Positions 44,026-54,000 of a stretch of 64,000 bases of DNA are shown in pieces (the first letter of the stretch is position 1; each line of letters opens with the position of its first letter). The position numbers were made by a program, and so were the translations under genes. The DNA is from Helicobacter cetorum (lineage in GTDB: Bacteria > Campylobacterota > Campylobacteria > Campylobacterales > DZAY01). The stretch is taken from assembly GCA_022729735.1 (NCBI GenBank), contig DZAY01000005.1, forward strand, positions 40,420 through 104,419, given 5' to 3'. The notes beneath the pieces are model-generated. The model had not been told where the DNA came from. It did no database searches and worked only from the letters and a program-made list of their open reading frames with translations.

Positions 44026-44087
44026 AAAGGAGTAGTCGCCATAATTAGAGCTAAGTAGCTTTCATTATCTAAGCCGACTTAAATATG
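44026..44087 (+). promoter_or_regulatory. Structured leader: Shine-Dalgarno, 46-nt hairpin, ATG
   Basis: AAAGGAG at 44026-44032; pairings AGTCG/CGACT, ATAAT/ATTAT and AGAGCT/AGCTTT over 44034-44079; ATG at 44085. Confidence 0.6.
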
Positions 44088-47000
44088 AAGATAGGTAGAA
44101 GTATTGTATTAGCCAATCTCCTCATTGGCATAGGTTTTGGTGCAACAGATGTAAGTTTTACAACAACTCCAACAGGTTATATAAAAGATAAATCATCTGC
44201 TAAGTTATGCTTAAGTAATTATAACTACTCAAATCCAGCAAATGCTTATGTAGATTATAATTATAGCTATGATAATAATGGAACTTGGTTTGATGCTAAT
44301 GGTATAACGGATTGTGTATATATGAGCCTACTTAGTGATGGAACACACTCTGTAACTGTAAAAGCTTGGACAAGTGATTATAATAGTTCTATTACAAGCA
44401 CTTATAGTAATAATACAACATCTTCATCATTCGTAATTGATACAACAGCTCCAACATCACCAACACTAATTACAAATACAAGTATGGGTGGAACAACTAC
44501 AACAAATGCAACGGATATAAACATTACAACAAATGGAGATTTAAATTTAACTTTTAATTCACCACTAAGTAGTAGTGATATTACATATTATAGATACTAT
44601 TTAAACTCTAAAACTTATTCAAATGATATAAATGTAACTAAATTTAATACAATTGAATTGGAAAATTTAGGAGATGGAACTCATACTTTATATATTTGGT
44701 CAAAGGATTTAGCAGGAAATGAACAAAGTGATACTCAAAGAACTAAAGTAAATATTACAGTAGATTCTACTAAACCAACTATATCTACAATCAATTATGA
44801 TGCTTTTACTCTAAAAAGTGCTTTAGAAGTTAATGTTACAACTGATGAAAATATTAGTAACTATAAATATGATGTAAATGGAACTGGTTTTGTAACTGTT
44901 GCAAACAGTCCAACTGATAAAGGTTTTGATTTATCTCTTAGCAAAACAACTGGGGAATATAATATTTCTATTTTGGTGCAAGATTTATATGGAAATTGGA
45001 GTGAAGAAAAAAATATAACAATAGTAAATGATACTCAAAGTGCAAAACCTAAAGTTTATGGATTTATTCCAAATGGAAGTGGAACATATAGTATAAATTT
45101 ATATCCAGCTGGAGAGAGAATTTCTAAATATAAATATAGTATTAATGATGCTCCATATAGCTCAACTTACAATGTAAATGAAGCAAATATTTCACTTAGC
45201 AACTCTCTATTTGCCAATGGATTAGACCATAATATAACTATCATATCTTATGATTTTGATAATAATAGCTATACAGAAACTTTTAAATGGAAACAGTTAA
45301 GTGATAGTAATAACTCTATAACATTTATAAATTTACCAACAGCACTTACAAATTCAAAAACTGTAAATACAACATTTAGTGGAGTTAGTGGAGTTAATTA
45401 TAGTTATGAATTAAATGGCTCAAATAGTTTTGGAATTAGTGGTTTTGCTACAACTAGTGGAACTATTAGCACAACAGTGAGTAGTGATGGAGATTATAAT
45501 ATTTCAATTATTGCACCAGATAATAATAAAACTATATATAGCTTTAAAGTTGATAGCACGGAAATAAATTCAAGCAGTGCAAACTTTGCTTCAAATATAT
45601 CAAAAAATGGTGGAATAACTGCTGATAATCTTTTGAATTTCAAACTTTATGCAAAAGATGCAATAGCTTATAGTTATGCTTTAAATGGAAACACATATTC
45701 AAGCACTTATCCAATCAGCTCAAATACAATTTCACTTACAGGTTTAGGAGCAAATAGCTACTATTCACCAATCAGTAGTTCAAATTTACCAAATTTTGGT
45801 GCAGGTGGAACTGTTGAAGAGACTCTATATCAAGAGATGTTAAATATAAAATTTTTAGATTTAGCTGGAAATTGGAGCAGTCCAATAGCATTTAACTACT
45901 ATATAGATAATATCACTCCAAGTTTTGCAATTAGCAAAGCTGATGCAAATGAAACACACACAATTTTAAATATAAAAGCAACATCAAGTGATGCAAAAGA
46001 GTTTAGTTACTCACTAAATAGTGACACATATTCAAAATATATTCCTTTAAACTCTTTATTAGAAGCAAATGTAACTTTTGTAAATTTAAAAAGTGGAGTT
46101 CATAACTTTAGTGCAAAAGTAAAAGATAAAGTTGGAAATGTAGCATCGCCAATATCTTATAGCTTTAGTGTTGGAAATGCTTCAATTCCAACAGTTGGAA
46201 TTAGTTATATTGCATCACAAGTTTCAAATCTTCCAAATATTGGAAATGCAATTTATGTAGGTTATCCAGTTAGTTTTGATATAAATGATAGCACATTGAC
46301 ATATTATGCTTGGAATTTTGGTGATGGAACAACTTCAAGCTCAAAAAATGCAAGTAAAACTTATACTCAAGCAGGAACATATACAGTAACTTTTGTTGGA
46401 AGATATGCAAGTGGAGTTGAAACTACTACTTCACAAACTATAAGTGTTGGAACTCTTAGCTCATCTCAAACATCAATACCAACTACAACAACTCCAACTA
46501 CAACAGTAACTACTCCAGTAGTAAGTTATCCTGTTGTTGAAACACCTATTATTAGCACACCAATAGTAACAACTCCAACTATTCCTACTTTATCAATAAA
46601 TGGTAATTCAGTTACATATAGCTCAAGTGGATACTCAAATGTTACTAAAACAGTAGTTAGTGGCAAAGATGCCGTAGTTGTAAATAGTGGTGAAGTAACA
46701 ATTAATTTAAACCAAAATACACCTTTAGCAGTTGGTCAAACACTAATTTATCCAAATAGTAGTGGTAGTATAAAAGTATTATCAGGAAGTAGTGCAGATT
46801 ATGGTGTGTTTAACTCATACTCTAAAAGTGGAAATAGAGTTGTAATAATACCAACTCAAAAACTAACAATCGACTCTAATATAGTAGAAGTTGGAGAAAG
46901 TGTAATATTTGAAGATGGTATTTTGAAATATATTGTATATGGCGATGGAAGTAAAACAACTATTGGAAATCCTATTAATAGTTCTACATTAAGTAGTAGT

Positions 47001-52540: not shown

Positions 52541-52995
52541 AAAAATTTTTGAAAATGTTACCAATTTTACCAATGTTATTAATAGGTGCTGATATGCCAC
52601 CAATGCCACCAGGAATGATTGATAACAAAGCTAATACAAAAGAGGTTAAAGTAGAAGATGTTAAAAAAGAAGAGACAAAGCAAGAAGATGTGAAGGGAAC
52701 ATTCCCTAAAGAGTGCGATATTATTCCACCAATGTTAATTATGTTGCCTCCTCAATTAAGTGCTGATTTAACACTTTGTAAAAATGCTCTGCATAAACCA
52801 AGTAGTGAAAAGGTTTTTGAAGCTTTAAAAACAAAACTTAAAGTTACAAAAGATAAAGAGTTAGAAATAGTTTCAGTTGAAAATTTAGAAAGCTTTTCAG
52901 AGTTATATCTAATTATTTACAAACATAAAGGTAAAGAGAAAAAGGTTTTAACAAATAGTGCTGTAACTAAATTTTTGACTTATAAGGAGTTTTAA
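52537..52995 (+). CDS. Exported Pro/Met-rich hypothetical protein
   Basis: Start reassigned to ATG 52537 (AGGAG RBS, ATGA overlap); signal peptide, MPPMPP and C..IPPM...LPP...C. Confidence 0.7.
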   Translation: MKKFLKMLPILPMLLIGADMPPMPPGMIDNKANTKEVKVEDVKKEETKQEDVKGTFPKECDIIPPMLIMLPPQLSADLTLCKNALHKPSSEKVFEALKTKLKVTKDKELEIVSVENLESFSELYLIIYKHKGKEKKVLTNSAVTKFLTYKEF

Positions 52996-54000
52996 TTGCA
53001 TATATTAGTAACAGGTGGAGCAGGTTATATTGGAAGTCATGTTGTAAAAGAGATTTTATGTAGTCAATCACATGCCAAAATAACAATTATTGATAATCTA
53101 TCCACAGGTTTTGTGCAAACGGTTGATACATTAAAAAATATTGCAAAAGAGAGAAGTAAAAAGCTTACTTTTATAGAAGCTTCTCTTAGCAATTGGGATA
53201 TGATTTGGGGAATTTTTAAGAGTGAGAAATTTGATGTGATAATACATTTTGCTGCGAGTTTGGTTGTGCCAGAGAGTGTGAGCAATCCTCTTAAATATTA
53301 TTTAAATAATACAGCAAATACAGCAAATTTAATTAGATTAGCTCAAATTTGTGGAGTTAAAAAATTTATATTTAGCTCAACAGCAGCAGTTTATGGAGAA
53401 CCTTCTATTGATAAAGTTCCAGTTTCAGAAGAGAGTCCAGTTTTGCCAATTAATCCTTATGGTTTTTCTAAACTATTTAGTGAGCAAATTTTAATTGATT
53501 CTTCAAAAGTAAATAGTGGATTTAAATATGTAATTTTGAGATATTTCAATGTTGCAGGTGGTGATGTTGATGGATTAATTGGTCAATCTACTCTAAATGC
53601 TACACATTTAATTAAAGTAGCTTGTGAAACAGCTCTTGGCAAAAGAGAAAAAATGTATATATTTGGTGATGATTACAATACAGCAGATGGAACATGTATT
53701 AGAGATTATATCCATGTTCAGGATTTAGCACTTGCTCATATTGAAGCACTAAAATGTGAAAGTAGCGAAATTTTTAATTGTGGTTATGGATATGGTTTTT
53801 CTGTAAAAGAGGTTATAAATACAGTAAAAAAAGTTAGTGGTGTAGATTTTAAAACTGAAATAGTTGATAAAAGAGCAGGAGACCCAGCAATTTTAATTGC
53901 AAATAGTGATAAGTTGCAAAAATTAACAAATTGGCGACCAAAATATAACTCATTAGAGTTAATATGCAAAAGTGCTTTAGAGTGGGAGAAAAAAATTTAA
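52996..54000 (+). CDS. galE: UDP-glucose 4-epimerase
   Basis: [37 protein letters not shown] and [11 protein letters not shown]. Confidence 0.95.

Follow-up and report, generated by a model that had tools for sequence, protein, structure and literature searches.

Protein glycosylation in Campylobacterota follows two routes, one through PglB and one that modifies flagellin, and enzymes of family GT39, the protein O-mannosyltransferases (PMTs), are to our knowledge almost unstudied in bacteria outside the actinobacteria. Described systems that invite comparison are the actinobacterial Pmt, which is paired with Ppm1 (M. tuberculosis, Streptomyces, Corynebacterium, Cellulomonas), the eukaryotic PMT1, PMT2 and PMT4 (POMT) with their luminal MIR beta-trefoil, the three-component systems of GtrA, GtrB and a Gtr-type GT-C glycosyltransferase, with CsbB/GtcA/YfhO in Firmicutes, and TfpW of Pseudomonas aeruginosa, which, going by a portion of the published account, is a GT-C pilin O-arabinosyltransferase. 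One passage in the literature places GT39 enzymes in more than 3,800 bacterial genomes and calls them only minimally examined in prokaryotes (PMC11727336), and part of another paper counts among the open questions by what means bacterial PMTs make up for their lack of MIR (PMC12331936). Here we analysed a stretch of 64,000 nucleotides from Helicobacter cetorum (GenBank assembly GCA_022729735.1, contig DZAY01000005.1, positions 40,420 to 104,419 of the forward strand), hereafter the window, in which a PMT gene stands next to a gene for a PA14 protein. The best-supported new element is a proposed two-subunit PMT-PA14 enzyme, and we consider it, with modest confidence, probable that this enzyme transfers a lipid-linked sugar to Ser/Thr-rich linkers of exported proteins. 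The two proposed core parts are:

50533-51990, + strand: PMT/GT39-type GT-C of 485 amino acids (aa) with PMT and PMT_4TMC domains, the putative catalytic subunit
51959-52540, + strand: membrane-anchored PA14 protein of 193 aa, PA14 domain at 24.3 bits

Judged from its sequence, the enzyme belongs to the GT39/PMT type of GT-C, keeps the DE motif intact and is not of the ArnT type, which answers the question of GT39 against ArnT/GT83 that had been raised for it. The PMT domain (PF02366) reaches 103 bits over residues 15-253 (cut-off 22.7), and PMT_4TMC (PF16192), the C-terminal domain that separates PMTs from ArnT-like enzymes, reaches 67.4 bits over residues 315-479 (cut-off 32.4). A profile of 76 family sequences matched Pmt1 in the PDB at 1.1e-35, followed by Pmt2, 9i5k and Pmt4, and no ArnT chain appeared at E<=10 with this profile or at E<=1 with a 5-sequence profile, only Pmt chains being matched. 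An ArnT/GT83 identity was rejected on the presence of PMT_4TMC and on these Pmt-type matches; there was also no match of the window's enzyme to PMT_2 (PF13231) at E<=0.1. The E. coli control genome matches PF02366 as well, through a protein that we take to be ArnT. The FWDENYH motif is invariant in 76/76 sequences and aligns to the 'fDEvhf' stretch of Pmt1, as HPPLGK does to 'HPPLaK'. Since the alignment to Pmt1 jumps from residue 318 to 558, spanning the MIR insert, and Pfam shows no MIR match, the window's enzyme is MIR-less, as the actinobacterial Pmt likewise is according to part of one paper (PMC12331936). An actinobacterial Pmt orthologue was tried as a candidate and rejected (NCBIfam NF058602, 15.7 bits against a cut-off of 800). 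The gene, which starts with TTG at 50533 behind an upstream GGAGAGG, is the sole PF02366 gene of the genome, and the same genome encodes a PglB/STT3 homologue and two PMT_2-type GT-Cs.

The pairing with the PA14 protein emerges from the relatives of the enzyme. Species-representative genomes hold 324 PMT relatives, and the analysis was carried out on the best 80 (40-58% identity), which come from Campylobacterota, phyla of the candidate phyla radiation (CPR), Spirochaetota, Cellvibrionaceae, Kangiella, Lysobacteraceae, Bdellovibrionota and Kiritimatiellota. The proteins of the window were searched against these 80 loci by tblastn (E<=1e-5), and 1345 open reading frames (ORFs) from 82 loci, which are the 80 related loci, the window and locus L007, were clustered all against all. 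By tblastn the PA14 protein is present in 65/80 loci; clustering placed the PMT family in 82/82 loci, the PA14 family in 65/82, a GT2 family in 20/82, a GtrA family in 12/82 and any other family in at most 14/82. The PA14 match always abuts the PMT gene, at offsets of -42 to +206 nt, and this adjacency is seen in Campylobacterota, Spirochaetota, Cellvibrionaceae, Lysobacteraceae and Bdellovibrionota, with the order PA14-PMT in nine Sulfurimonadaceae/Helicobacteraceae-type loci and PMT-PA14 elsewhere. Because only PA14 stays with PMT across the loci, the conserved unit is the PMT-PA14 pair and not the run of eight genes (44085-54000) in which the pair lies.

Among kin the enzyme is patchy, being present in 4/40 same-order genomes (51-58% identity), and in the PMT tree Campylobacterota sequences fall into at least three groups (3 label changes), the window's PMT pairing with that of a Campylobacterales bin (SH-aLRT 97). 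This combination of scattered groups and narrow distribution fits mobility. Campylobacterota modules often adjoin genes of a type II secretion system (T2SS), a second weakly PMT/PMT_2-like GT-C, or Rep/Par genes. A separate observation concerns five loci from Parcubacteria, Patescibacteria and Saccharibacteria bins (L019-L023), in which a PMT 52-56% identical to the window's has a GT2 gene upstream and no PA14 gene; these PMTs are as close to the window's enzyme as most Campylobacterota homologues, or closer.

For the PA14 protein, an AlphaFold2 model from 65 homologues (pLDDT 93.6) shows a transmembrane (TM) helix at residues 11-30 and a beta-sandwich. The best Foldseek match is the PA14 sugar-binding domain of MpIBP (6x8a; E 1e-7, TM score 0.6), followed by PA14 domains of RTX-adhesin, Epa and Flo proteins, and the family profile matches the PA14 chain of RsgI (6qdi) at 2.3e-16 with an invariant DDG aligned. 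An exhaustive profile search points to a large family of stand-alone proteins and gave 518 matches at E<=1e-30, multi-PA14 proteins among them. About 85 of the best 150 are single-stretch, full-length matches of 177-222 aa, with one exception of 375 aa, and the long ones are multi-PA14 proteins. A PMT-PA14 fusion (~680 aa) was found neither among the best 150 profile matches nor in a single-sequence search of longer proteins, which is weak evidence.

Complex prediction for PMT and PA14 gave an ipSAE of 0.85 in 3/3 runs, and the best of 3 controls reached 0.02. The ipSAE mark is reached by 58/80 solved complexes and 2/110 mismatched pairs, rough counts for which own alignments were used. The runs agree in at least 96% of contacts, with a partner pLDDT of at least 84, and the predicted interface joins PMT residues 428-455 and 467-485 to PA14 residues 11-32 and 82-87: the PA14 TM helix is predicted to pack on the last PMT helix (428-455), while the C-terminal tail of PMT (467-485) touches PA14 82-87. 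The model thus supports binding of the two proteins to each other. Together with the conserved adjacency, it bears out the functional link between the PA14 protein and the PMT enzyme that had been drawn from this locus earlier. We know of no solved complex of this kind, and in the library that we searched no paper reports such a partner for a PMT; one on Saccharibacteria mentions a PA14 domain and a mannosyltransferase, but apart from each other.

The original prediction had gone further and read the whole run as a dedicated operon, in which PMT, PA14 protein and GalE glycosylate, the subtilase processes, and the Ig/PKD, GWNL and Ser-rich proteins are displayed as a surface or sheath. All eight + strand ORFs are present between 44085 and 54000, and besides the pair they are:

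44085-47696, + strand: Ig/PKD exported protein of 1203 aa, PKD_4 at 46.9 bits; candidate acceptor
47700-48230, + strand: GWNL-module exported protein of 176 aa, one tandem module
48227-48799, + strand: Ser-rich protein of 190 aa with an N-terminal TM helix, as read from the translation; candidate acceptor and orphan
48803-50551, + strand: S8 subtilase of 582 aa, Peptidase_S8 at 172.5 bits; candidate cargo or processing protease
52537-52995, + strand: exported Pro/Met-rich protein of ~152 aa; the longest ORF runs from 52507 (162 aa)
52996-54000, + strand: GalE, UDP-glucose 4-epimerase, TIGR01179 at 435 bits

The start of the Pro/Met-rich gene is more likely ATG 52537, which is preceded at 6 nt by AGGAG and overlaps the stop of the PA14 gene as ATGA. 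The features that had been named in the translations are all readable there: the Thr/Pro linker at about residues 795-835 of the 1203-aa protein, the Ser-rich stretch of the 190-aa protein, GWNL, FWDENYH and HPPLGK. In the Ig/PKD protein, PKD_4 matches at residues 725-786, and Big_13 reaches only 20.1 bits under a cut-off of 27. The 176-aa, 190-aa and 162-aa proteins matched no Pfam or NCBIfam family.

For a dedicated operon speaks the packing of the genes, which overlap or lie 0-3 nt apart (junctions in order: a 3-nt gap, a 4-nt overlap, a 3-nt gap, overlaps of 19, 32 and 34 nt, and a 0-nt gap). The company of the PMT gene elsewhere points the same way, since a subtilase also stands directly upstream of it in L007, beside a Ser-rich 956-aa exported protein, and GWNL-module ORFs lie near it in L031 and L043. 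However, the same tight spacing on the same strand continues beyond galE through serS (19-nt gap), a TPR gene, lgt, a cation-efflux gene and one more gene to 59883, so that the boundary of eight genes is not set by spacing. Promoter-like matches (103 against 120 expected in shuffles) and terminator-like ones (5 against 4.3) showed no excess. Co-conservation across the related loci fails: by tblastn the subtilase is present in 1/80 loci, the Pro/Met-rich protein in 1/80, a GalE-like protein in 2/80 (27-33% identity) and the 1203-aa, 176-aa and 190-aa proteins in 0/80 each, and clustering raises the subtilase to 3/82 and the Pro/Met-rich family to 4/82, leaving the PA14 gene as the only one that stays beside the PMT gene. 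GalE is moreover the sole close GalE of the genome. We therefore regard the eight-gene operon as improbable; what remains of the original prediction is the GT39/PMT enzyme, its link to PA14 and a donor synthase in the genome. The GWNL and Pro/Met-rich proteins, the subtilase and GalE do not belong to a fixed pathway; they are neighbours, of which some could at most be cargo.

As had been stated earlier, the window holds no polyprenol-phosphate-sugar synthase, and our search of the genome found a GtrB orthologue on another contig (G000:C30:8488-9408, G000 being this genome). This GT2 shares 65% identity with the PMT-linked GT2 of L009; over its full length it matches GtrB sll0501 (5ekp) at 1.8e-65, and it also matches ArnC at ~1e-38 and archaeal dolichol-phosphate mannose synthase (DPMS; 5mlz) at 1e-11. 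Directly behind the pair, L007 and L009 each carry a GtrA-family gene and a GT2 gene; the GT2 gene of L008 lies two genes further on. GT2 orthologues (at least 56% identity) occur in 3/4 PMT-positive relatives, the fourth genome being 83% complete, and in 2/36 PMT-negative ones. Since the linked donor synthase is GtrB-like rather than DPMS-like, the sugar need not be mannose, and from sequence a hexose from a UDP-sugar appears more likely. GalE (TIGR01179 cut-off 262 bits) has as its next-best match in the genome a protein 26% identical; as a sole close copy it looks like, and probably is, a housekeeping neighbour, and, as it is not co-conserved either, it says little about the donor.

Three further observations touch the donor arm. 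In L016 (G000:C30:8488-10885), an N_methyl pseudopilin-like gene and a gene for a 317-aa protein stand behind the GtrB orthologue, and both have homologues in the T2SS region by the PMT loci of other Campylobacterota; the locus looks like a remnant of a once-joined neighbourhood. L017 (G000:C53:1316-3872) holds a GtrA-family gene between genes for a UbiA prenyltransferase and a FAD_binding_4 oxidoreductase, a layout that we take to be reminiscent of polyprenyl-phosphate pentofuranose donor pathways. Finally, 11/82 loci (L024, L027, L055, L058, L067, L085, L089, L092 and L095-L097) have, 0.6-2.4 kb upstream of PMT, a gene for 1-deoxy-D-xylulose 5-phosphate (DXP) synthase, which catalyses the first reaction towards isoprenoid precursors; these loci form two unrelated groups, Helicobacteraceae-type and Cellvibrionaceae-type. 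This proximity may be chance or a link to polyprenol supply.

Taking these elements together, we propose a system whose core would be a MIR-less GT39/PMT-type GT-C and a membrane protein with one TM helix whose PA14 lectin-type domain faces the periplasm. At the cytoplasmic face, the GtrB-type GT2 would load a hexose from a nucleotide sugar onto polyprenol phosphate. The lipid-linked sugar would then be flipped, in relatives by the GtrA-type protein encoded beside the pair, and the PMT subunit would transfer the sugar via the Asp-Glu of loop 1 to a periplasmic acceptor. The PA14 subunit, whose TM helix would dock it to PMT at the C-terminal tail and the last TM helix, may bind sugar on the acceptor or on product that has been modified already, much as has been proposed for MIR in eukaryotic PMTs. 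Putative acceptors are Ser/Thr-rich linkers, here those of the 1203-aa and 190-aa proteins and of ~20 poly-Ser proteins elsewhere in the genome. We infer that the acceptor is a protein, that PA14 has the role outlined and that a flippase serves the system in this genome. A bolder version, which we offer tentatively and regard as more apt to be wrong than right, would make PA14 a trans-acting stand-in for MIR that renders a MIR-less PMT processive along poly-Ser/Thr linkers of exported proteins (T2SS cargo in many hosts), with PMT-PA14(-GtrA-GtrB) as a system for protein O-glycosylation that is widespread among Gram-negative bacteria and in part carried on plasmids. PA14 as a MIR stand-in would explain why lineages rich in polyserine linkers, such as Cellvibrionaceae, carry the pair. 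According to part of one paper, one species of Cellvibrionaceae, a family in which the pair occurs, secretes a lytic polysaccharide monooxygenase with a 34-residue polyserine linker (PMC10598543).

Whether protein is the acceptor can be weighed on the neighbours of the module. Counting ORFs of at least 100 aa, and taking as poly-Ser/Thr those with at least 70% S+T over 30 aa, we found 24/1192 such ORFs, spread over 17/82 loci and enriched near the module (16/382 within 2.5 kb, 8/628 farther; odds ratio 3.4, Fisher p 0.005). A Kangiella bin has four poly-Ser proteins in a row upstream of GT2-PMT, giant poly-Ser proteins abut the PMT gene in two Lysobacteraceae-type bins, a Spirochaetales bin has a poly-Ser protein directly after PMT-PA14-GT2, and such neighbours also occur in Campylobacterota loci. 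The contig G017:C2 (L007 and L101; 34,983 bp), which looks like a plasmid as it carries two Rep3 genes and ParA, encodes a complete T2SS (GspC, D, E, F, G), two peptidyl-prolyl isomerases and four poly-Ser exported proteins, together with the S8 subtilase directly upstream of PMT-PA14-GtrA-GT2. In this genome, 19 ORFs among 2433 have tracts of at least 73% S/T/P (~20 such tract proteins), several of which end in the GWNL module, as the subtilase does; the 1203-aa protein ranks ~20th of the 2433 for S/T/P-rich windows. No homologue of the 190-aa Ser-rich protein turned up in the related loci or in the rest of the genome. We consider the Thr/Pro- and Ser-rich neighbours plausible acceptors.

A rival view is that PMT-PA14 decorates, like the Gtr systems, a non-protein envelope glycan (lipooligosaccharide, capsule, exopolysaccharide or peptidoglycan), that PA14 binds this glycan and that the Ser/Thr-rich neighbours are bystanders. 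In relatives, the GtrA, GtrB-like and GT-C genes are laid out as in systems that modify glycans in the periplasm, the GtrA and GT2 of Sulfurimonadaceae are shared with a second GT-C, PA14 domains of solved structure bind sugars, and no candidate acceptor protein is co-conserved with the pair across the related loci. On the other hand, among solved structures only protein O-mannosyltransferases resemble the enzyme, which has the PMT-specific C-terminal domain; close homologues are spread over CPR, spirochaetes and Gammaproteobacteria, which suggests that there is no obvious shared glycan, and poly-Ser/Thr proteins are enriched beside the module. A glycan acceptor is, in our view, a serious possibility but an unlikely one.

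Another rival view would have the enzyme glycosylate T2SS pseudopilins or type IV pilins in the manner of TfpW. In several arrangements, PMT-PA14-GtrA-GT2 of Campylobacterota adjoins GspF, GspG and pseudopilin-like genes, and the GT2 orthologue of this genome is followed by the N_methyl pilin-like gene. Yet the latter protein has no Ser/Thr-rich stretch, T2SS genes are absent from the recurrent neighbours in the mapped Cellvibrionaceae and Spirochaetota loci, and the window's PMT lies 36 kb from the nearest secretin/T2SSF cluster. We give a pilin acceptor very little credence.

Returning to the two-subunit enzyme acting on Ser/Thr-rich linkers, several points weigh against it. A PA14 gene is missing from 15/80 loci, mostly CPR and some Gammaproteobacteria bins; in one of these the contig ends 109 nt past the PMT gene, ten others sit in one clade of CPR/gammaproteobacterial bins in the PMT tree, and L030, L033 and L046 fall outside that clade. 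The Pfam PA14 match (PF07691) exceeds its cut-off of 24 by a margin of only 0.3 bits, and binding of PMT and PA14 is a model and not a measurement. On the acceptor side, the cut-offs behind the poly-Ser/Thr enrichment (70%, 2.5 kb) were chosen after the data had been seen, and related loci are not independent. A (WSN)x12 codon pattern, a crude proxy that other repeats match as well, was counted in 41 genomes and showed no relation to PMT presence: the five PMT-positive genomes totalled 85, 102, 23, 7 and 1, and PMT-negative ones reached as many as 82. A glycan-binding PA14 suits a polysaccharide acceptor equally well. On the donor side, the GT2 orthologue also occurs in 2 PMT-negative relatives and beside the second GT-C family of Sulfurimonadaceae, and is therefore not exclusive to the PMT enzyme. 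No close homologue of the PMT-linked GtrA was found in this genome by tblastn, and its single clear GtrA (PF04138, C53:2620-2988) clusters with UbiA and FAD_binding_4, a different type of pathway.

Besides the pair, the GWNL module recurs in this genome. It is a tandem of two ~55-aa units (GWNL..P ... W.Y..G.W ... G.GFWV), and a hidden Markov model built on it finds 12 ORFs here as well as the ORFs near PMT genes in L043 and L031. Within the window it occurs at 47700-48230 and at 50147-50551, the C-terminus of the subtilase, and elsewhere on contigs C25, C32, C52, C40, C59, C12 and C20; it either forms the C-terminal end of large poly-Ser proteins or comes right behind the signal peptide. The model of the 176-aa GWNL protein (pLDDT 86.2) has two small beta-barrel-like units; it gave no Foldseek match at E<=1e-3, and its best VIA Z, to small beta-barrels and cupins, was 4.5. 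For this protein no relatives of similar length were found, and the Atlas gave unnamed clusters only. The subtilase and the 956-aa Ser-rich exported protein of G017:C2 share another C-terminal tandem module (DGYF.HYG.G.FDW). In L042, the S8 homologue lies 5 kb from PMT. Homologues of the Pro/Met-rich protein lie 0.5-3.7 kb from the PMT gene in this window, L018, L038 and L043; an assignment of this protein to the DsbC_N type, on an Atlas lead of 0.76 only, was rejected.

Two other clusters of the window deserve mention. The + strand genes at 1547-10404 look like an MSHA-type pilus or T2SS-like cluster: they encode a 547-aa secretin, a T2SSE ATPase of the MshE type (592 aa) and a 414-aa T2SSF protein, interspersed with and followed by small genes, one of which (3994-4725) has a Pro- and Ser-rich stretch. 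At 16407-31118 (- strand), HlyD-family and ABC-transporter genes are followed downstream, in the same orientation, by genes for two large proteins, one cadherin-like (2299 aa) and the other (1622 aa) with at least 30 serines in a row. This arrangement resembles a type I secretion system whose cargo would be giant and adhesin-like.

The conserved lectin-type partner, predicted to bind PMT, would offer for one large family a concrete and testable answer to the question of how MIR-less enzymes manage, and the family includes cultured and tractable hosts (Cellvibrio, Marinimicrobium, Marinagarivorans). If the acceptors are Ser-rich linkers, the system would bear on a long-standing question, whether bacteria glycosylate the polyserine linkers in the carbohydrate-active enzymes that they secrete, and Campylobacterota would, if the proposal is true, have a third protein-glycosylation route beside PglB and flagellin glycosylation.

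In comparison with actinobacterial Pmt and Ppm1, both enzymes are MIR-less, combine PMT with PMT_4TMC and carry the DE motif, and a polyprenol-phosphate sugar made by a GT2 and Ser/Thr(/Pro)-rich exported acceptors would be expected here as well. In contrast, the window's enzyme is not an orthologue, sits in a diderm host and has a conserved PA14 partner and a GtrB-like donor synthase. Eukaryotic PMTs are its best matches of solved structure, with the catalytic motifs aligned, and they too combine a GT-C core with a lectin-type extracytoplasmic module; instead of MIR, the extra module here has the PA14 fold, is a separate gene product and is, in the model, docked through the membrane helix. 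Like TfpW, the enzyme would use a lipid-linked monosaccharide to modify an exported or periplasmic protein of a Gram-negative bacterium, whereas TfpW, as far as that portion of its literature goes, belongs to another GT-C family, takes a pentofuranose donor, has no PA14 partner and is encoded beside its pilin. The PA14 domain shares its fold and the aligned DDG segment with the known PA14 lectins (Marinomonas MpIBP, RTX adhesins, yeast Epa/Flo, RsgI anti-sigma sensors), and differs from them as a stand-alone protein of ~190 aa with one TM helix that is genomically tied to a glycosyltransferase. With the three-component systems, the locus has in common the GtrA and GtrB-like genes by the GT-C gene in relatives and the proposed extracytoplasmic transfer of a lipid-linked sugar; unlike them, it relies on a GT-C of the GT39 type rather than of the Gtr or YfhO type, adds a fourth, lectin-like component and has its parts unlinked in this genome. 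By analogy, the system would operate as the Gtr-type three-component systems do, with a GT39 enzyme as its GT-C and a lectin-like protein as its fourth subunit.

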